Shown: positions 1 to 10,403 of the stretch, one piece after another
Position numbering within the stretch: the stretch's first letter is position 1
How the letters are laid out: each line of letters opens with the position of its first letter
Assembly: GCA_963718915.1 (NCBI GenBank)
Contig: CAVRAI010000003.1
Location: forward strand, 480,001-512,000
Direction of reading: 5' to 3'
DNA: 32,000 nt
Source of the DNA: an uncultured Chloroflexia bacterium
GTDB lineage: Bacteria > Chloroflexota > Ktedonobacteria > Ktedonobacterales > JADMIN01
Notes under the pieces: generated by a model
What the model was told of the DNA's origin: nothing
The model's database searches: none
The model's input: the letters and a program-made list of their open reading frames with translations, nothing else
Made by a program: the position numbers and the translations under genes

Positions 1-1
1 T

Positions 2-673
2 CAACATCGCACTGAGGCAGGGCAACTTTCTGAGGAGCAGATTCATGCATTGGAAGACGACCCTGCTGTTATCGACCTGCTCCTACGAACTCTTGAACAA
101 GCAGCCTTGACGAGCGATGCAGACAAACAGACACTGCTCGCTAAGCTTTTGGCAGAGAGACTTGGCACTGATACAGACTCTGAGCTTGCTCTCGTAAGTC
201 GTATGGCATGCAATACCATCCCTAACCTAAGTGGCCAGCAGCTCAAGATCATAGCGGTGCGCTATATCCTATTCTTTCAGCGATACAACGAGACCATCGA
301 GAGTCAGAGTGACGATGTTTCCACACGTCGCCTACGTGAAGTTGAGTGGCTCATCAGCATGTTCGAGCCATACCAGGATATAATAGCAAGCACACACGAT
401 GCCGAGCATCTTGCAGGTGTTGGATGTTTCTTTGGGAAACAAGGATTTCTTGCGTACGAACTCAAGTCTACCCTAACACAGATGGTATCCCCTGATCTCG
501 ATCTAGATATGGTAATGAAAACGGCAACCTGGCAGCATCTTGAAACAGTATGGAACAACGCCAGACTGGCAGGTTTCGATCTTACGTCGGTGGGCTCGAT
601 GCTAGGAATGTACACATCCGATATCTTGGCAAATCGCCCGAACGATGTAGACAAATGGTTGAACCGTAGCTAA
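2..673 (+). CDS. 5'-truncated (window edge) all-helical hypothetical protein, partner of the downstream HEPN gene; tentatively LPO_1073/Vpar_1526-like or Abi-alpha-like
   Basis: This frame is open from base 2, with no stop before the TTG at 50 used by the ORF track, so the gene probably continues upstream. Stop is TAA 671-673, 17 nt before the next gene's ATG. G+C is visibly lower (about 50% on hand-counted lines) than the rest of the window. The segment DKQTLLAKLLAERL...NLSGQQLKIIAVRYILFF recalls those helical families, from memory and unverified. Confidence 0.55.
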   Translation, partial: QHRTEAGQLSEEQIHALEDDPAVIDLLLRTLEQAALTSDADKQTLLAKLLAERLGTDTDSELALVSRMACNTIPNLSGQQLKIIAVRYILFFQRYNETIESQSDDVSTRRLREVEWLISMFEPYQDIIASTHDAEHLAGVGCFFGKQGFLAYELKSTLTQMVSPDLDLDMVMKTATWQHLETVWNNARLAGFDLTSVGSMLGMYTSDILANRPNDVDKWLNRS

Positions 674-690
674 GCGTTAAGGAGCAACTA

Positions 691-1524
691 ATGCAACCAG
701 GATGGGATATAACGTCTGAATGGCTGGAATGTCCGGTGTGTCATCACATCATTCTTCGTTCACAGGAACTCAGCAAAACAAGTACTCCATGCCCTGAATG
801 CGGGAAACCTGGCACCAGGAGTCTATATCCCGACTCGCCCGAAGCCGACTTCATCCACATGGCCGCGTACTTCTTTGGGCAAGGAGAGAAACGCAGAATC
901 GCGAATCAGGCTGAGCGGCTAGAGGAGGCGCTCCTTGAAATTGGGAAGCAGTACGACCCTGAGTACCTCGAAGAGCTCGCAACAGAGTTGGCCCAAAGAT
1001 TTAACGGCTCAGCGGACCCAGTAATTGACGCACAAATGCTTCAATGTTCGCTCGATTACCTCATGAGTATCCTCGATATTTCGATGGATCAAGCGATACG
1101 CGTGTGGCATCCACTGATGGGTTCCACAAAGGGCACTTTTGAGGAGCACAAAGCCACTGTCCTCATGGCATGCAGCGCATTTGAGAGCATGTTTCTCAGC
1201 CTGCTAATACATGTAGGTATCTGGCGTGGTGGTCTGGAACCCCAAAAGGCGAAACGCATAGTTGAGCAGTTAGGAGTACCAGGGCGGACTTATAGCCAGT
1301 TTGAAAAGTGGGCTAATTGCTCCATTGATGATAAGGCAGAACAGATTGGATACTCAGCTTTCTGGGAGAATTGGCGCAAGATTAGGGCCGTTCGTAACAA
1401 ATTCATGCACGGGAAAGATGATCCAATCAAAAGGAGTACCGCCATTGATGCTTTTAAGTTACTACCGCAACTCGTCGCATTCTTTGTAACTCTAAACAAC
1501 CACTTTGCCCCAAAGGCACCCTAA
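691..1524 (+). CDS. Zinc-ribbon + HEPN-domain protein (predicted RNase-type effector)
   Basis: ATG 691 is preceded by AAGGAG (679-684). N-terminal CPVC (from nt 730) ... CPEC forms a zinc ribbon. The C-terminal ~125 aa is helical and carries AVRNKFMHG, an Rx4H HEPN motif (R235 = nt 1393-1395, H240 = nt 1408-1410). Low G+C like the upstream gene. Confidence 0.75.
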   Translation: MQPGWDITSEWLECPVCHHIILRSQELSKTSTPCPECGKPGTRSLYPDSPEADFIHMAAYFFGQGEKRRIANQAERLEEALLEIGKQYDPEYLEELATELAQRFNGSADPVIDAQMLQCSLDYLMSILDISMDQAIRVWHPLMGSTKGTFEEHKATVLMACSAFESMFLSLLIHVGIWRGGLEPQKAKRIVEQLGVPGRTYSQFEKWANCSIDDKAEQIGYSAFWENWRKIRAVRNKFMHGKDDPIKRSTAIDAFKLLPQLVAFFVTLNNHFAPKAP

Positions 1525-1544
1525 CTGGGGACGGAGACACACTC

Positions 1545-1631
1545 ATGCATAACTACACCGAAGGCGCCCTCGTCGAGCAGCCCGCCATCGCCCTGCTCAA
1601 ACAACTCGGCTGGCAGCATCTCAACTGCTGA
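1545..1631 (+). pseudogene. hsdR: Type I restriction enzyme R subunit (hsdR) 5' stub, 28 codons then TGA
   Basis: Encodes MHNYTEGALVEQPAIALLKQLGWQHLNC*, versus MHDYSEDALVEQPAIALLKQLGWPHINA at 4113. There are 8 mismatches over 84 nt, with a 49-50 nt perfectly identical core (about 1565-1614 = 4133-4182). GGAG lies 9 nt upstream of the ATG. Confidence 0.7.
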
Positions 1632-1695
1632 CGAAGCTCGTATCGGGCGAGGCCGATGTCGCGGCGCTGGAGATAGCGGAGCGGGAAGATGCGAT

Positions 1696-1950
1696 ATGAT
1701 GAGGAGAACAACCATGCGTGATACCCAGCCCCCCATCACCGACGACGAAGAATATCATGGCTATCAGCGAGCACGGGATAAAATGACCCTGCTCGTTGAA
1801 CAACGTGAAGCACGGCTGATTGATGCGCTGGCGCGTGGGAATGGAGAAGAGATTGAGGATCGGCGCTTTGATCTGCTCGATGCCTTACGCAAGCGCCAGG
1901 GCATCCTTGATGCGCTCAGCGTGTATGAACACCGCCAGCAGAGCGCCTAG
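1696..1950 (+). CDS. Small hypothetical helical, charged protein (84 aa)
   Basis: ORF with an ATGA overlap (ATG 1696-1698 / TGA 1697-1699) to a short upstream reading frame, which suggests former translational coupling. No recognisable motif. Confidence 0.4.
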   Translation: MMRRTTMRDTQPPITDDEEYHGYQRARDKMTLLVEQREARLIDALARGNGEEIEDRRFDLLDALRKRQGILDALSVYEHRQQSA

Positions 1951-2222: not shown

Positions 2223-2454
2223 ACAGCGAGGCAGTTCAGGCGCGGTTTTAACCGCCAGCCTCCATTGCGCGCGGCTCCAATCGCCAAATCACGTACAGGA
2301 AGCAGGGGGATCTCTGGCTTCAGCCGTGGCGAGTGTCAAGGGGGGATATTAAGCGACCATAGCGAGTCATGTACGAAACGCATGGTATTATCACCTCTTA
2401 AGGCAACCATCCTTCTCCATTGAAGTAGTGAATCCGACGCGCCAGGAGGTCTTG

Positions 2455-3837
2455 ATGCGCCACACACCATCCTCGCGGCCCCGCGTGCTCATGGGTCTCT
2501 TCTTCTTTCCACGTGGCGGGTCCGCACAGGTGACCAACTCGCTCGCCCACGTCTTGCCGCGCCAGGGATGGGATATCACCGTCATGTCCAGCTCACTCCA
2601 TGTGCCTGGGCTTCCTGGCGACGCCCGCGCCTTCTTTGAGGGACTGGATCTCTATCCACTTGACTGCACCGCTGCCCTCGACGCTGCTGATCCGTTGATG
2701 GCTGATCCGCCGCTGCCACCCTCCTATGAGGATCGTCCTGGCGCCCAGGATCGCGTCTTCGCGGCGGTGGATGACGCGACCTATACGCACCTGACGGATG
2801 CCTGGGCGCAGGCTCTCCATAAGGCCGGAGCCGCCGAGGCTACCATCCTGCACCTCCATCATTTGACCCCGCTGAATGCCGCTGCGGCGTGTGTTGCCCC
2901 ACACGTGCCCGTGGTTGGGCATCTGCATGGCACCGAACTCCTCATGCTGGAGCAGATCGCCCATGGCCCGCCCGCAGGGTGGATACACGCCAATGCCTGG
3001 GCGGATCGCATGCGTAGCTGGGCGGCGGCCTGTCAGCTGCTGATCGTGCCATCAGCCAGCCTGATACCGCGTGCGCAGGCGCTGCTGGGCGTCCCCGCCG
3101 AGCGCTGCATCCACCTGCCCAACGGGTTCGATCCCCAGCAGTTTGATCGGCGTACCGTGAACCGACAGGATCTCTGGCGCCACCTCCTCGTCGAACACCC
3201 ACAGGGCTGGCGCCCTGGTGATATCCCCGGCTCGGTTGCCTATACCGCACACCAGGCGCGTGCCCTCGCGACCGCCTCAGTGCTGCTCTATGTGGGACGC
3301 TTCACGGCGCTCAAACGCCTGGACCTGCTGCTGCGTGCCTTTGTGCGTGCCAGCCCTGCCTTCACCGCGCCAGCGAACCTGGTCTTATTGGGCGGTTTTC
3401 CGGGGGAGTGGGAGGGTGAACACCCCTTCGAGCTGATCCAGGATCTGCGAGCGCACAACGTGTTCCTGGCAGGTTGGCATGACCATAGCGAACTCCCGGC
3501 GATCTTCGCTGCCGCGGATGCGGTGATCCTCGCCTCAACCCAGGAGCCGTTTGGTCAGGTGCTGGTAGAAGGCATGGCCTGTGGCTTGCCCGCCATCGCC
3601 ATGGCAGCCGGTGGTCCCAGCGAGATCATCGCCGATGGAGAGACCGGTTGGCTCGTGCCACCCGATGATGAAGCCGCCTTCGCAGCCGCCATGGTATCGG
3701 CGGTCAACGACCCAGGCGAGCGGCGCGCGCGTGGAGATGCCGCCTATGATGTGGTACATGATCGCTACAGTTGGCCAGCGCTGGGAGCGCATCTCGCATG
3801 CATCTACGAACAGGTATCCAGGACGAATGCGAGATGA
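2455..3837 (+). CDS. GT4-family (GT-B fold) glycosyltransferase
   Basis: AGGAGG (2444-2449) precedes ATG 2455; the ORF track's GTG 2428 is less likely. C-terminal EPFGQVLVEGMACGLPAIAMAAGGPSEII matches the E-x7-E retaining glycosyltransferase signature. N-terminal FFFPRGGSAQV is the typical first beta-alpha loop. Confidence 0.85.
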   Translation: MRHTPSSRPRVLMGLFFFPRGGSAQVTNSLAHVLPRQGWDITVMSSSLHVPGLPGDARAFFEGLDLYPLDCTAALDAADPLMADPPLPPSYEDRPGAQDRVFAAVDDATYTHLTDAWAQALHKAGAAEATILHLHHLTPLNAAAACVAPHVPVVGHLHGTELLMLEQIAHGPPAGWIHANAWADRMRSWAAACQLLIVPSASLIPRAQALLGVPAERCIHLPNGFDPQQFDRRTVNRQDLWRHLLVEHPQGWRPGDIPGSVAYTAHQARALATASVLLYVGRFTALKRLDLLLRAFVRASPAFTAPANLVLLGGFPGEWEGEHPFELIQDLRAHNVFLAGWHDHSELPAIFAAADAVILASTQEPFGQVLVEGMACGLPAIAMAAGGPSEIIADGETGWLVPPDDEAAFAAAMVSAVNDPGERRARGDAAYDVVHDRYSWPALGAHLACIYEQVSRTNAR

Positions 3838-4112: not shown

Positions 4113-7100
4113 ATGCATGACTACAGCGAAGACGCCCTCGTCGAGCAGCCCGCCATCGCCCTGCTCAAACAACTCGGCTGGCCACATATCAACGCCTTCC
4201 GCGAGACCTTCGGCGAGAGCGGCACGCTTGGCCGCGAGACCGAGGGCGAGGTAGTCCTGGTCAGACATCTGCGCGCCGCGCTGGCGAAGCTCAACCCCGG
4301 CGTCTCCCCCGACGCGCTGGAGCTGGCTATCGAGCAGATCACCCGCGACCGCTCCGCCATGAGTCCCGCCGCCGCTAACCGCGAGGTCTACAGCCTGCTC
4401 AAAGACAACATCGTCGTCCGGATGCGCGATACCAGCGGCAACGAGCGCGACGAGACCGTCTGCCTCATCGACTGGAACACCCCCGCCAACAACGACTTCC
4501 TGCTCGTCTCGCAGCTCTGGGTCGCGGGCGATATGTACCGCCGCCGTCCCGATCTCGTCGGCTTCGTCAACGGCATCCCCCTCGTCTTCGTCGAACTCAA
4601 AGCGACCCATCGCCGCCTGGAGCACGCCTATCAGGACAACCTGCGCGACTATAAAGACACCATCCCCCAGCTCTTCTGGTACAACGCCCTCATCCTCCTC
4701 TCCAACGGCAGCCAGACTCGTGTCGGCTCCCTCACCGCTGGCTGGGAGCACTTCTTCGAGTGGAAGAAGATTGAAAGCGAAGGCGAGCCGGGCGTCATCT
4801 CGCTCGATACCGTCCTGCGCGGCGTCTGCGACCACACCCGCCTGCTCGACCTCGCCGAGAACTTCATCCTCTATCGCGAGAGCGGCGGCGCGCTCATCAA
4901 GATCCTCGCCCAGAACCATCAGTATCTCGGCGTCAACAACGCCATCGAAGCCGTCCGCGCCATCCGGGCGAATCAGGGCCGCCTCGGCGTTTTCTGGCAT
5001 ACCCAGGGCAGCGGCAAGAGCCTCTCGATGATCTTCTTCTCCCAGAAAGTCCTGCGCAAACTGGCTGGCGTCTGGACCTTCCTCGTCGTCACCGACCGCC
5101 AGGAGCTCGACGGCCAGATCTACCAGACCTTCGCCACCACCGGAGCCGTCACCGAGGACGAGCGCGCGATTCACGCGGGCAGTGGCGAGCAGCTCAAGCA
5201 ACTGCTGACTGAGCAGCACAGGTATCTGTTTACGCTCATCCAGAAGTTCCATACCGAGCCAGGCATCGCTCTATCCCGAAATCTCCAGCCGCGACGACAT
5301 CATTGTCATCACCGACGAGGCCCACCGCAGCCAGTACGACCAGTTCGCCGCCAACATGCGCCGCGCCCTGCCCAGCGCCGCCTTCCTCGCCTTCACCGGA
5401 ACCCCGCTCATCACCGGCGAGGAGGAAAAGACGCGCGAAGTCTTCGGCGACTATGTCAGCGTCTACAACTTCAGCCAGTCCATCGAAGACGGCGCGACCC
5501 TGCCGCTCTACTACGAGAACCGCATCCCCGAACTACAGCTGACCAACCCCAACCTCAACGCCGACATCGAGGGACTGATCGAGGCCGCCGACCTCGACGA
5601 CGACCAGGAGCGCAAGCTGGAGCGCGAGTTTGCCCGCGAATATCACCTCATCACCCGCGACGAACGCCTGGAGAAGATCGCCGAAGACCTCGTCGCCCAC
5701 TTCCTTGCCCGTGGCCAGCCCGGCAAAGCGATGGTCGTCAGCGTCGATAAAGCCACCGCCGTCCGCATGTACGACAAGGTCCGCGCCCACTGGCAATCCA
5801 CCCTCGCCGACCTGCGCGCCCAGCTCAGCCCGCCCGCCATCACCTACCCGGTAAAGTCGCCGCGCCCAGGCGATAGTGGCGATACCCCGCCCACTGTTGG
5901 AGCTACAACTGCCCCGCTCTCCGAGGCCGAGCGCGCCCGCCTGCGAGAGCAGATCGCCTTTATGGAGGCGACCGATATGGCCGTCGTCGTCTCGCAGTCC
6001 CAGAACGAGGTCGCCGACTTCCGCGAGAAGGGGCTGGATATCGCCACCCACCGCCGCCGCATGGTCACCGAAGACCTCGAAACCAAATTCAAGGATCCCG
6101 TCGACCCGCTGCGCATCGTCTTCGTTTGCGCGATGTGGATGACCGGCTTCGACGTCCCCAGCCTCACCACCATCTATCTCGACAAGCCCATGCGCAACCA
6201 TACCCTGATGCAGACCATCGCCCGCGCCAACCGCGTCTTCGCCGACAAGACCAACGGCCTGATCGTGGACTACGTCGGCGTCTTCCGCAACCTGCAGAAA
6301 GCGCTGGCCATCTACGGCGGGACGCATCTCGACGGCATGGGCGGCGACGAGGCGGAAGACACGCCCATCAAGGACAAGAGCGAGCTGGTCGCCGCGCTCC
6401 GCCAGTCCCTCGCCGATCTCGACATCTTCTCTGACCTGCACGGAATAGATATCCCCGCGCTGCTCGCCGCCAGGGGCTTCGACAAAGCCCGCCTGCTCGA
6501 CGACGCCGTAGACACGCTCGTCGCCAATGACGACATCCGCAGGCAATTTCTATCAGATGTGGCGCAGGCGGCGCTGCTCTACCGCGCCATCCTGCCAGAT
6601 ACCAGCGCGGGCGAGTTCACCGCCGCGATGAGCCTCTACGTCGCGCTCAGCAAGAAGATACGCGCCCTCTCGCCCGAACCCGATACAGCAGGCATTATGG
6701 CCGCCATCGATAAGCTGCTCGACGTCAGCATCGCCAGCGAGGGCTACGTCATCGAGCAATCGGCAGACTATGCCACCGCTCGCTACATCGACCTCAGCCA
6801 GATCGACTTCGACGCCCTGCGCGCCCGCTTCGAGCATGGGCGCCAGCACATCCTCGCCCAGGAGTTGCGCACCGCCATCGAAGGCAAGCTCCACGATCTC
6901 ATCGCGCGCAACCGCACGCGCATGAACTACCAGGAACGCTTCGAGCGTCTCATTGCCGACTACAACGCGGGCAGTCTCAACGTCCAGCAGTTCTTTGATC
7001 AACTGCTCGTACTCACCCGCGACCTGAACGCCGAAGACAAGCGCCACATCGCCGAAGAACTGAACGAAGAGCAGCTTGCCATCTTCGACCTGCTCACCCG

Positions 7101-7371
7101 CCCCAACGTAGACCTGTCCGGGCGCGACCGCCAGCAAGTCAAGCGCGTCGCCCGTGACCTGCTCGAATCGCTCAAGCGCGAACAGCTTGTCCTCGACTGG
7201 AAGAAACGCCAGGCCGCACGCGCCGCCGTCAAGGTCGCCATCGAGAAAGTCCTCGACAACGAGCTACCCAAAGCCTATACCCGCGACCTCTACGAACAAA
7301 AATGCGATAAGGTCTTCCAACACATCTACGACAGCTACGCCGACGCCACCCACAACATCTACGCCGCCTGA
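4113..7371 (+). pseudogene. hsdR: Type I restriction-modification R subunit (HsdR, SF2 helicase/nuclease with DUF3387-type C-terminus), interrupted by a +1 frameshift near 5268-5272
   Basis: Frame A (4113-) gives the N-terminal nuclease region, then QGSGKS (motif I) and ...LIQKFHTEPGIA. Frame B (open from 5209) continues YPEISSRDDIIVITDEAHRSQYD (DEAH), FTGTPL, QTIARANR and a long C-terminal helical domain ending at 7371. The junction ggc atc gct c|tat ccc indicates one extra nucleotide. Confidence 0.9.
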
Positions 7372-7560
7372 TCGGCGTTGCCATCTCGTGAGGATATGCT
7401 CGCCCCAGGATTAGCCGCGGGTCTTCAGCCTGCGGCCCCCTCGCTCGACCTGAAACCTCGCCCGCTGGCGATTAGCCGCGGCATTCATGCCGCGAACCCG
7501 CCCTACCACGCACTGCGCCCTCCGCTTCCACTCTTCGCCCAGGTCTCTGCAGTCCGCGAC

Positions 7561-7606
7561 GGCGGACTTGGTGGCCGCAGGCCCAAGAGGCGCGGTTTCA
7601 ACCGCC
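7561..7606. repeat. Dispersed GC-rich motif-family element (ggcggacttggtggccgcaggcc..aggcgcggtttcaaccgcc)
   Basis: Near-identical to the reverse complement of 24613-24650, and related to 9596-9640 and 2235-2260. Confidence 0.8.
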
Positions 7607-7690
7607 CGCGCTGCCCACCGCAACGCCCGTCTCCGTCACACATGCTAAAACACATCAACCGCCCGCTCATTGGCTGAGGTCCATCCCCGC

Positions 7691-7719
7691 TTGACGCCCT
7701 CCGCCCCGCGTCCGATACT
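7691..7719 (+). promoter_or_regulatory. Candidate sigma-70-type promoter, TTGACG-N17-GATACT
   Basis: -35 ttgacg at 7691-7696, a 17-nt spacer, and -10 gatact at 7714-7719, about 155 nt upstream of the GTG at 7876. Pattern match only. Confidence 0.3.
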
Positions 7720-7783
7720 GAGCGAGATAGCGCGTGAGCGGATTGTGACTCGCGCATAGCATCCCAAAACGGTATCATCCCGG

Positions 7784-7821
7784 TATCTGCTATATCTGCT
7801 ATATCTGCTATATCTGCTATA
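7784..7821. repeat. 9-bp tandem repeat x4 (tatctgcta) plus a degenerate 5th unit
   Basis: Units at 7784-7792, 7793-7801, 7802-7810 and 7811-7819, in the leader/promoter region of the MBL-fold gene. Confidence 0.9.
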
Positions 7822-7875
7822 GCTGGATAGCATCGCGAGTAGCATTGTAACGGACTTCTCAAAGGATAGGCGCCC

Positions 7876-8760
7876 GTGCGGATAACATTCATTGGTCATG
7901 CTGGACTCTTCATCGAGACACGCCACGGCAGTATTCTCACTGACCCGTGGTTCAATACCGCCTACTTTGCCTCCTGGTTCCCCTTCCCCAGCAACGAAGG
8001 CATCGACAGGGCGAAGATCGCCAACCCCGACTACCTCTTCGTCTCGCACCTGCACCATGACCACTTCGACCCCGAATTCCTGCGCGACCACGTCTCCAAA
8101 GAGACCACCGTCCTCCTGCCCGACTACCCGCTCGACCTGCTCGAACGCGGCCTGCGCGAGGTCGGCTTCACCAAATTCCTGCGCACCAAAAACGGCGTCC
8201 CCGTCACCGTCGATGGCCTGCGGCTGATGATCTCCGCTGCCGTCGCCCCCACCGATGGCCCGCTCGGCGACTCCGGCCTCAGCGTCGACGACGGCGAGGT
8301 GCGCATCTTCAACCAGAACGACTCGCGCCCGGTGGACCTCGATGTGCTCGCCGACTTCGGCCCCTACGACGCCCATTTTCTCCAGTTCTCCGGCGCGATC
8401 TGGTACCCGATGGTCTACCTCTATCCTGAGAAGATGATGGACGCCCTCGGCCGCAAGAAGCGCGACAATGAGCTTGCGCGCGCCATGCGGTTCGTCAAAG
8501 AGATTGGCGCCACCCACATCATCCCGTCCGCCGGGCCGCCCTGCTTCCTCGACGACGACCTGTATAGCTTCAACGACTTCGACCGCGACCCGAAGAACAT
8601 CTTTCCCGACCAGACGGTCTTCCTCGAATTCATGCGGTCGCAGGGCCACGACCACGGCCACCTGATGATTCCCGGCAGCGTCGGCACGCTCACCAGCGAG
8701 GGCTACACCGTCACCCACCCGATGCCCGACGAGCAGGTGCAGGCCATCTTCACGCGATAA
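7876..8760 (+). CDS. MBL-fold metallo-hydrolase domain protein (UlaG-like); probably the N-terminal fragment of a disrupted MBL-Rieske fusion gene
   Basis: GTG 7876 with AAAGGA 9 nt upstream. Carries the VSHLHHDHFD metallo-beta-lactamase HxHxDH motif. Coding-like sequence continues past the TAA in another frame. Confidence 0.8.
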   Translation: MRITFIGHAGLFIETRHGSILTDPWFNTAYFASWFPFPSNEGIDRAKIANPDYLFVSHLHHDHFDPEFLRDHVSKETTVLLPDYPLDLLERGLREVGFTKFLRTKNGVPVTVDGLRLMISAAVAPTDGPLGDSGLSVDDGEVRIFNQNDSRPVDLDVLADFGPYDAHFLQFSGAIWYPMVYLYPEKMMDALGRKKRDNELARAMRFVKEIGATHIIPSAGPPCFLDDDLYSFNDFDRDPKNIFPDQTVFLEFMRSQGHDHGHLMIPGSVGTLTSEGYTVTHPMPDEQVQAIFTR

Positions 8761-9595: not shown

Positions 9596-9760
9596 GGCGG
9601 TTAAAACCGCGCCTGAAGGGCCTGCGGCCACGAAACCCGCCGTCGCGGGTTTCACCGACCTGCCTGGCAGGCACGACGTTGGTGAGTACTCTGCAGCCCG
9701 CGCAGGCGGGCTTTGCGGATGCGCGGGCGCATCCCTTAGGCGCGGCTTCAGCCGCCAGCC
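9596..9760. repeat. ~165-bp imperfect palindromic (MITE/REP-like) element with aaccgcgcctga-type termini
   Basis: The left end ggcggttaaaaccgcgcctgaag is the imperfect inverse of the right end cttaggcgcggcttcagccgcc. The internal gcgggtttc / gcgggctttg motifs match the same family as 24611-24774. Confidence 0.75.
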
Positions 9761-9803
9761 GACGTTGTGCCGCACAGTGGAGTTACATAGGGAGGGGGCT
9801 ACC

Positions 9804-10403
9804 ATGGATGGATTCCGCGCGCTCTGGCAGCGCACCCGCGAGCGACTGGCGCAGGCGGCGTCCTCGCCGAACTCGGCGGCGCGTAATCCCGCCGTCGCCG
9901 CTTACCTCGACGAAGTGATGGCGACGTTCCCCTATACCGAGGCCGCCAAAGCCTGGTTCCACAGCGCCATCACCTTCGAGGTGGAGAACCTCGACAGCAC
10001 GAACGGCGGCGGCTTCTGGTATCCCGACCGCTACGCCGTCTTCCTCTATACCGCGCAGTACGAGGCGGCCATCCACGAACTGGCCCACGCCTGGTGGGAA
10101 GAGCGCCGCCCGCGCCTGAAAGATGCGCTGATCGAGGCGACCGTCATGCTCTCTGAGGAGACCGATCCGCGCTACCAGCGCATGCAACAGCTCACCCACG
10201 GCTACATTCATGGCATCGCGGAGCAGAACTGGCCGGGCATGCTGGTGGATCGCAACGACTGGGAGATGTACGCGGGGATGGCCAGTGGCATGATGGCCGA
10301 TCTGCGGCTAGTACCACCCTATGTGCGCGAATTTTACGCCGAGATGTACGCGCTATTGCCCGATGACGCCCCTTCGCCCGCAAGCCTTGCGCGCCATAAC
10401 TGA
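9804..10403 (+). CDS. Hypothetical HExxH protein (putative zinc metallopeptidase-like)
   Basis: GGAGGG (9791-9796) precedes ATG 9804. The only motif found is AIHELAHAWW (HExxH). No signal peptide is evident. Confidence 0.6.
   Translation: MDGFRALWQRTRERLAQAASSPNSAARNPAVAAYLDEVMATFPYTEAAKAWFHSAITFEVENLDSTNGGGFWYPDRYAVFLYTAQYEAAIHELAHAWWEERRPRLKDALIEATVMLSEETDPRYQRMQQLTHGYIHGIAEQNWPGMLVDRNDWEMYAGMASGMMADLRLVPPYVREFYAEMYALLPDDAPSPASLARHN

Follow-up and report, generated by a model that had tools for sequence, protein, structure and literature searches.

Among described systems, the closest to the locus reported here is PrrC, an HEPN-type RNase whose gene lies between hsdS and hsdR in the EcoprrI (type Ic) hsd operon (PMC3710099). 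PrrC stays latent while restriction works and is released when restriction is neutralised (PMC3710099). In 2013, HEPN RNases embedded in restriction–modification (R-M) operons were predicted to be PrrC-like back-up suicide effectors, with R-M links reported for at least 16 HEPN clades; the same work recorded R-M embedding and a zinc-ribbon fusion (Npun_R5629) in the Abi2/Swt1 group (Anantharaman et al., 2013; PMC3710099). We analysed a stretch of 32,000 nucleotides (nt) from an uncultured Chloroflexia bacterium of the order Ktedonobacterales (GenBank assembly GCA_963718915.1, contig CAVRAI010000003.1, positions 480,001 to 512,000 of the forward strand; hereafter, the window), at whose 5′ end two genes, gene 1 and gene 2, stand directly ahead of an hsdR start. 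Gene 2 (691..1524, + strand; open reading frame (ORF), alignments and AlphaFold2 (AF2) model) encodes 277 amino acids (aa), in which a helical linker connects a zinc ribbon to a C-terminal HEPN-like domain, and its product is predicted to be a latent RNase.

A first-pass annotation of the window had placed the gene pair in a PrrC-like slot directly upstream of an hsdR start. Gene 2 does occupy the slot of PrrC in a type I R-M operon, with hsdS on one side and hsdR on the other, and this position proved to be conserved in its relatives. We regard the zinc-ribbon HEPN gene beside hsdR as a fresh, uncurated example of an established defence theme and not as a new type of system; it leaves the understanding of defence islands unchanged, and a specialist would not be surprised by it. 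The annotation had also called the module one of a type it did not recognise. This is only half correct: gene 1 belongs to NF045477/PF28206, and a 2013 catalogue already lists both the zinc-ribbon HEPN architecture and the theme of HEPN genes within R-M operons (PMC3710099).

With PrrC, gene 2 shares its place in the operon and, by analogy, may share the logic of latency and release. The two differ in build: PrrC carries an N-terminal ABC-ATPase, whereas gene 2 has the zinc ribbon and helical linker. Scans against Pfam, NCBIfam and PADLOC found no ATPase domain in gene 2, and no sequence relationship to PrrC was detectable. Membership of the PrrC/RloC family was rejected because gene 2 lacks the N-terminal ABC-ATPase (SbcC/Rad50-like) domain. 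HEPN proteins of the Abi2/Swt1 and RiboL-PSP clades have the same RNxxxH motif and include the nearest Pfam model (PF18735), but gene 2 lacks an L-PSP domain and scores below the threshold of PF18735. Relative to the 'Zinc Ribbon (Npun_R5629)' architecture (PMC3710099), gene 2 may differ in domain order and in its long helical linker.

HepT/MntA modules (HEPN-MNT, type II/VII toxin–antitoxin) likewise contain small HEPN RNase toxins with an Rx4H motif, and they are among the top-probability Foldseek structures for gene 2, albeit with matches that are not significant. Gene 2 differs from HepT in its additional zinc ribbon and linker, and gene 1 is not a nucleotidyltransferase (NTase). Since no MNT gene adjoins gene 2 in the window, we do not consider the locus a HepT/MntA pair; an NTase-like gene (DUF6932) is present only in locus L008, where it is two genes upstream. 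Solo HEPN genes in R-M operons (AbiU2, AbiJ solos, ApeA, EC042_2821/DUF3644, DUF4145) represent the same genomic theme but different sequence families. None of these models is significant on gene 2, and single gene 2 relatives match the Apea and DUF3644 models weakly.

Zinc ribbon and HEPN-like domain of gene 2

The N-terminal part of gene 2 holds a zinc ribbon, C14-x2-C17 ... C34-x2-C37 (CPVC and CPEC; 730..801, + strand), which gives weak Zn_ribbon_8 and FmdB matches and for which AF2 predicts short strands at residues 11-22. To follow conservation we used three alignments, one of the close clade (A1), one of 61 full-length relatives (A4) and one of 71 isolated C-terminal domains (A8). Outside its own clade, the 61 relatives are 15-31% identical to the window protein, yet all four cysteines are invariant in them, as are P47, R235, H240 and N270; E165, N236 and F265 are nearly so. 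The four cysteines, R235 and H240 hold without exception in relatives as low as approximately 17% identity.

The HEPN-like helical domain spans approximately residues 130-272 (1078..1506, + strand), as delimited by AF2 secondary structure, conservation and the PF18735 matches of relatives. Within it lies the catalytic-type Rx4H motif R235-N-K-F-M-H240 (1393..1410, + strand; alignments A1, A4 and A8), embedded in AVRNKFMHG. When the C-terminal domains of 71 relatives are aligned in isolation, no residue other than R and H is invariant. The polar N236 directly after R235, expected of an HEPN Rx4-6H motif, is nearly invariant in all three alignments, and E165 is present in at least 90% of the A4 and A8 sequences. 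RNxxxH, together with this nearly invariant Glu, is thus kept across 61-71 relatives at 12-55% identity.

The AF2 model of gene 2 has a mean predicted local distance difference test score (pLDDT) of 81.8, rising to approximately 90 over the C-terminal domain. Its N-terminal part consists of a small zinc ribbon built from strands, together with long linker helices; the C-terminal helices lie at 132-146, 151-178, 222-239 and 248-272, with a helical insert at 184-218. In the described HEPN layout, Rx4-6H stands at the end of helix 3, an acidic residue is found in helix 2, and an insert separates helices 2 and 3 (PMC3710099). In the model, RNKFMH terminates helix 222-239 (predicted helix 3) and E165 sits in helix 151-178 (helix 2), so that the predicted helix order and the positions of motif, Glu and insert match that layout exactly.

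Gene 2 itself matches no significant model in Pfam, NCBIfam, PADLOC (v2) or PHROGs. Among its relatives, PF18735 HEPN_RiboL-PSP is matched by the C-terminal domains of 22 of the 71 (best E 8.8e-7), and the other Pfam families matched by more than one relative are all HEPN families, although weaker (HEPN_Cthe2314, MAE_28990, Swt1 and Apea). A Foldseek search of the PDB returned HEPN proteins as the top structures by probability (1wty, 0.89; HepT from the MntA-HepT complex, 6m6w, 0.84), at E values of 0.2-0.6 that are not significant; 1wty was deposited as a 'probable nucleotidyl transferase protein', and 5yep is listed as well. Sequence-profile searches of the PDB with full-length and C-terminal-domain profiles gave nothing significant. 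HepS 9oij reached E 0.26-0.88 along the motif only, and annexins and designed helical proteins were treated as noise.

Although no direct match is significant, we consider the assignment of gene 2 to HEPN well supported, because the motif, the predicted topology and the transitive profile matches agree. The annotation's description of gene 2, a zinc ribbon and helical linker joined to an HEPN-type Rx4-6H domain, is thereby borne out. The copies of Pfam, NCBIfam and PADLOC (v2) that we searched do not contain the family, which would extend defence-annotation tools.

The hsdS–hsdR interval and gene 1

The gene 2 family is rare, uncharacterised and nearly always adjoins restriction genes. A word-indexed search of 5.8 billion proteins yielded 7 close relatives (49-100% identity), and an exhaustive hidden Markov model search of 1.84 billion cluster representatives yielded 218 representatives at E <= 1e-3. 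Most are 270-300 aa long, some are shorter, and one is a 729-aa fusion. Profile scans with A1 over genome, metagenome and viral contig sets revealed no further loci, and tblastn with gene 1 and gene 2 found no match in plasmids or phages.

In all five close loci with a visible downstream gene (the window, L001, L002, L003 and L006), hsdR starts 15-23 nt after gene 2. Gene 2 is embedded in a type I hsd operon, after hsdS and before hsdR, in the window plus L007 and in L001, L002, L003, L006 and L008. The most complete arrangement, hsdM-hsdS-gene2-hsdR-AIPR/Mrr, is found in L001, where hsdS stands directly upstream of gene 2. L002 reads hsdS tail, PDC-M14A-like gene, unknown gene, gene 2 and hsdR start; L003 reads gene2-hsdR; L004 reads gene1-gene2; and L006 reads gene1-gene2 followed by sequence that aligns as an hsdR start. 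L008 carries hsdM and, further on, an hsdS tail, a DUF6932 gene (PDC-M63A-like), a 78-aa ORF, gene 1 and a broken gene 2, which is frameshifted and carries a 4-nt deletion and a premature stop. Hits of tblastn with the L007 hsdS tail place hsdS tails upstream of gene 2 in L001, L002, L007 and L008, and neighbouring cargo genes match the PADLOC candidate families PDC-M14A, PDC-M63A and PDC-S05. Two further features of L001 were observed. Downstream of its hsdR, 7144-8226 encodes an Mrr_cat-like N-terminus with an AIPR (abortive-infection phage resistance) domain, a second Abi-type gene; and at 2984-3052 the hsdS tail motif appears in another frame and runs past the called hsdS stop at 3017; the called gene probably has a wrong end or a frameshift close to its 3′ terminus.

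L007 comes from an independent assembly and is identical to the window over their overlap (100%). It extends further upstream, where an hsdS-like ORF that ends in RRTRDLLLPKLVSGAVDVAGMEIAAGEDNN stands immediately before gene 1, its stop overlapping the start codon of gene 1; of hsdS, only a tail of 30 codons is visible. The hsdS end sequence expected upstream of gene 1 reads LLPKLVSGAVDVAGMEIAAGEDNN followed by a stop, and the tail motif of L007 also ends hsdS in L001, L002 and L008. In line with the annotation's suggestion that hsdM/hsdS may lie just upstream of the window, L007 shows that an hsdS 3′ end does directly precede gene 1. The hsdM gene and the body of hsdS fall outside the window.

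More distant relatives broaden the contexts. A clade approximately 19% identical to window gene 2 is homologous to the window clade, as hhalign confirms with 97.8% probability (E 1.2e-12, 240 columns). Its members stand directly after hsdS in EcoEI-type operons of the order hsdR-hsdM-x-hsdS-gene (L012/L013/L021, and L022 at 72% identity) or beside a BREX cluster, pglX-pglZ-brxL (L015-L020). In P0021, the 729-aa metagenomic fusion, a gene 2 relative is joined C-terminally to HD-CE (PF24391), a phosphohydrolase-type conflict-effector domain.

In the window, gene 1 (1..673, + strand) is represented by the 3′ 223 codons of a 285-aa protein; its ORF, in the frame of 2-673, is open at the window's 5′ end. 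Gene 2 follows on the same strand after a 17-nt gap, with an AAGGAG ribosome-binding site (678..683, + strand) 7 nt ahead of its ATG. Scans predicted neither a promoter nor a terminator between the genes, and Rfam and tRNA scans gave nothing relevant. The G+C fraction is 0.491 over positions 1-1524 (gene 1, 0.488; gene 2, 0.494) versus 0.627 over 1632-32000, and the hsdR stub is host-like at 0.605. The AT-rich tract with its two packed genes, AAGGAG and downstream hsdR stub was found as annotated (49% versus 63% G+C). As the annotation had also proposed, the module is compositionally foreign, and the low G+C of gene 2 relative to flanking hsd genes recurs in every related locus. Ratios of non-synonymous to synonymous change (dN/dS) of 0.15-0.20 for gene 2 and 0.14-0.27 for gene 1 indicate purifying selection in the homologues of both; this selection, together with the G+C contrast in every related locus, argues that the gene pair is not a product of chance.

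The full-length gene 1 protein (P0008; also carried by L007) belongs to the LPO_1073/Vpar_1526 family (NCBIfam NF045477). The window protein scores 92.6 bits against a cutoff of 45 (E 3e-26, model positions 49-257 of 257) and full-length homologues score 103 bits. Homologues carry precomputed Pfam PF28206, and gene 1 matches phrog_19542 at E 5e-15. The family has a name only: apart from a single locus-tag mention, neither a paper nor a function was found for it. The AF2 model of gene 1 is all-helical but poor (pLDDT 49) and too weak for a structure search.

The annotation had cast the two genes as an obligate two-component module in which gene 1 is the sensor or antitoxin, and a related possibility is that they form a self-contained toxin–antitoxin pair, with gene 1 neutralising the HEPN toxin, that hitch-hikes in the R-M locus or stabilises it. 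The tight same-strand spacing and the low G+C common to both genes would suit such a pair, as would its recurrence in four loci (window/L007, L004, L006 and L008) and the single recombination tract of 95-100% identity that spans both genes (described below), and HEPN toxins with adjoining antitoxins are well known (HepT/MntA). Strict co-occurrence nevertheless fails. Gene 2 occurs without gene 1 in L001, with hsdS directly upstream, in L002, with two unrelated genes upstream, and in the distant clades, and L009 has a gene 1 homologue with neither gene 2 nor any hsd or other R-M gene nearby. Domain scans of gene 1 found no nucleotidyltransferase or DNA-binding signature. Because each gene occurs without the other, gene 1 is a facultative neighbour, one of several exchangeable cargo genes in the interval between hsdS and gene 2, and not an obligate antitoxin or sensor; we consider a toxin–antitoxin pair improbable. 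In one further locus, L011 (a Ktedonobacterales metagenome-assembled genome), the contig ends just after the gene 1 homologue.

Predicted role of gene 2

We favour, with confidence only slightly above even, a reading in which gene 2 is a PrrC-like latent RNase, a second-line abortive-infection effector that guards the type I R-M system. Gene 2 would be co-transcribed with hsdS and hsdR, and its product would be a metal-independent RNase that is made in latent form. The zinc ribbon and linker would keep the protein inactive by contacting the restriction complex; HsdR, as the invariant neighbour of gene 2, is the most probable partner. A phage that disables or overwhelms restriction would release the protein, which would then cut cellular or phage RNA. 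Gene 1 would be separate, swappable cargo in the hsdS–hsdR gap. The sequence data show how gene 2 is built from its domains, the conservation of its catalytic-type residues, a history of purifying selection, a gene order that recurs in type I operons and beside BREX, and the recombination scar described below. RNase activity, latency, the trigger and physical coupling to HsdR we infer; restraint by the R-M complex and activation by a phage anti-restriction factor follow by analogy only.

Several observations count against this reading. The match of window gene 2 to PF18735 is sub-threshold (E 0.013-0.14; 12.5-15.8 bits, with a cutoff of 28.4), the family is known from sequence alone, and only approximately 10 independent contexts were inspected. 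L010, a distant member, has no visible R-M neighbour; only an FGE-sulfatase-like gene is visible upstream. Finally, gene 2 is intact beside an hsdR stub and a frameshifted hsdR, which is unexplained if the R-M complex restrains the toxin, unless HsdM/HsdS or gene 1 suffices. The rearranged operon and frameshifted hsdR suggest that this copy of gene 2 may be uncoupled from a working restriction enzyme.

The survival of gene 2 next to a broken hsdR is easier to explain with a harmless protein. Gene 2 could instead assist or regulate the type I enzyme as a subunit without toxicity; it might, for instance, bind nucleic acid through its zinc ribbon and so adjust the expression or activity of hsdR, or process the mRNA of the operon. 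Its strict adjacency to the hsdR start, with short gaps that suggest translational coupling, is compatible with this, as is the long linker (residues 50-146), which has no assigned function. Yet all three residues of the catalytic-type HEPN triad are kept unchanged even between deeply diverged relatives. Moreover, distant relatives follow hsdS rather than adjoin hsdR, and they neighbour BREX or carry a fused HD-CE effector domain, contexts that fit an effector better than an hsdR-specific regulator. We therefore judge a purely accessory role unlikely.

The family would be useful for testing the PrrC paradigm, being small (277 aa), free of an ATPase regulator, missing from the family databases searched and unusually faithful in its adjacency to hsdR; for these reasons it could be a convenient minimal model in which to study how the failure of a restriction enzyme is sensed by an RNase. 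To our knowledge, few R-M-embedded HEPN RNases besides PrrC have been tested experimentally.

The hsdR stub, the full-length hsdR and intervening cargo

The stop of gene 2 is followed 20 nt later by the ATG of an hsdR 5′ stub (1545..1631, + strand; Pfam HSDR_N, E 0.006), which is preceded by a GGAG. The stub has 28 codons, 27 of them sense, and ends at a TGA (1629-1631). Over its first 81 nt it shares 93% identity with 4113-4193, where a long hsdR begins. Where hsdR homologues run on into CAACTGCTTCCACGA, the window instead switches at CTGCT (1625-1629) into the remnant of an hsdS 3′ end (1625..1699, + strand). This remnant was identified by tblastn with the L007 hsdS tail, which matches 1625-1690, and by DNA alignment; positions 1625-1696 encode LLTKLVSGEADVAALEIAEREDAI, and the stop (1697-1699) overlaps the start of the next small ORF. 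The tail DNA is approximately 80% identical to that of L007. The stub is a recombination scar, at which the 5′ end of the cassette's own hsdR is joined to a second, related hsdS 3′ end at the 5-nt microhomology CTGCT. The 28-codon hsdR start noted in the annotation is thus present, but because it is fused at 1625-1629 to an hsdS remnant, the stub did not arise by decay in place.

The scar originated either by a deletion that fused two neighbouring type I operons or by insertion of a cassette (hsdS tail-gene1-gene2-hsdR start) into a resident hsdS. A tandem duplication, which would account for two hsdS tails and two hsdR starts, was considered unlikely because the copies are only approximately 80% and 93% identical. 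The idea that the first 81 nt of hsdR form a specially conserved recombination site was also discarded, as they are no more conserved across loci than the remaining hsdR.

A second trace of exchange is found within the gene pair. Window positions 181-840 share with L008 a tract of approximately 650 nt at 95-100% identity, which extends over the last two-thirds of gene 1 and into the beginning of gene 2. The flanks are 50-60% identical, and the tract therefore indicates recent, ongoing recombination among cassettes. With its microhomology junction and mosaic recombination tracts, the window documents the movement of cargo inside a type I operon.

The sole full-length hsdR in the window (4113..7371, + strand) starts 2.5 kb downstream of the stub and is frameshifted at approximately 5267-5272, just before the DEAH box. 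Pfam matches are split over two ORFs, and in a tblastn comparison with L001 HsdR, frame 3 accounts for residues 1-385 and frame 1 for residues 387-1058. The frameshift is of a single base, at a site without a long homopolymer, and could reflect a real pseudogene or an assembly error. The window thus contains no intact hsdR, the first copy being the stub and the second frameshifted.

That the whole locus is a decaying remnant in this genome, with gene 1 and gene 2 non-functional and only relatives elsewhere active, we find doubtful. The stub fused to an hsdS remnant, the frameshifted second hsdR and the frameshifted gene 2 homologue of L008 would point that way. Against it, the reading frame of gene 2 has its full length, that of gene 1 stays open as far as the window reaches and has a complete 285-aa form in P0008/L007, the independent assembly L007 gives the identical sequence, and the window alleles of the two genes show no excess of non-synonymous change relative to L006 (dN/dS 0.15 and 0.24).

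Between the stub and the full-length hsdR lie two further genes. The first is a small helical ORF of 78-84 aa (1696..1950, + strand), translationally coupled to the hsdS tail and 95% identical to an ORF of L008. The second encodes a GT4 glycosyltransferase (2428..3837, + strand) that matches Glycos_transf_1 (2e-32) and PF20706 GT4-conflict (3.9e-8; 33 bits against a cutoff of 26). By its match to the conflict family, the GT4 gene may be further defence-linked cargo rather than a housekeeping enzyme.

Extending the PrrC-like reading from this locus to its family, we tentatively propose, as possible but short of probable, that the gene 2 family is a minimal, ATPase-free counterpart of PrrC that senses modification-dependent complexes (HsdR, BREX) via its zinc ribbon and linker and then fires as an RNase. 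The hsdS–hsdR gap would be a cargo hotspot in which cassettes (gene 1, PDC-M14A, PDC-M63A/DUF6932, GT4) are swapped by recombination, with the stub/tail junction and the 650-nt L008 tract as fossils of such swaps.

Several smaller features were seen in and around the downstream segment. In L008, the homologue of the small ORF (9707-9943) lies between the DUF6932 nucleotidyltransferase-like gene (PADLOC PDC-M63A) and gene 1, and the cargo genes shared by the window and L008 stand in a different order in each. The non-coding interval between the small ORF and the GT4 gene contains approximately five tandem copies of a 23-nt unit, GCAGGCGGGCTTTGTGGCCGAGT (2108-2245), with a G-rich, hairpin-like sequence just upstream (approximately 2085-2125). 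Short related elements, AGGCGCGGTTT(T/C)AACCGCC, occur at 2238-2259 and 7588-7609 (91% identical; also at 2029-2049); they stand on either side of the block from GT4 to hsdR and may represent a dispersed intergenic repeat that brackets it. Further downstream, 7779-7825 holds four to five tandem copies of a unit of approximately 10 nt (CTGCTATAT...), just upstream of a metallo-beta-lactamase-fold gene starting at 7876.

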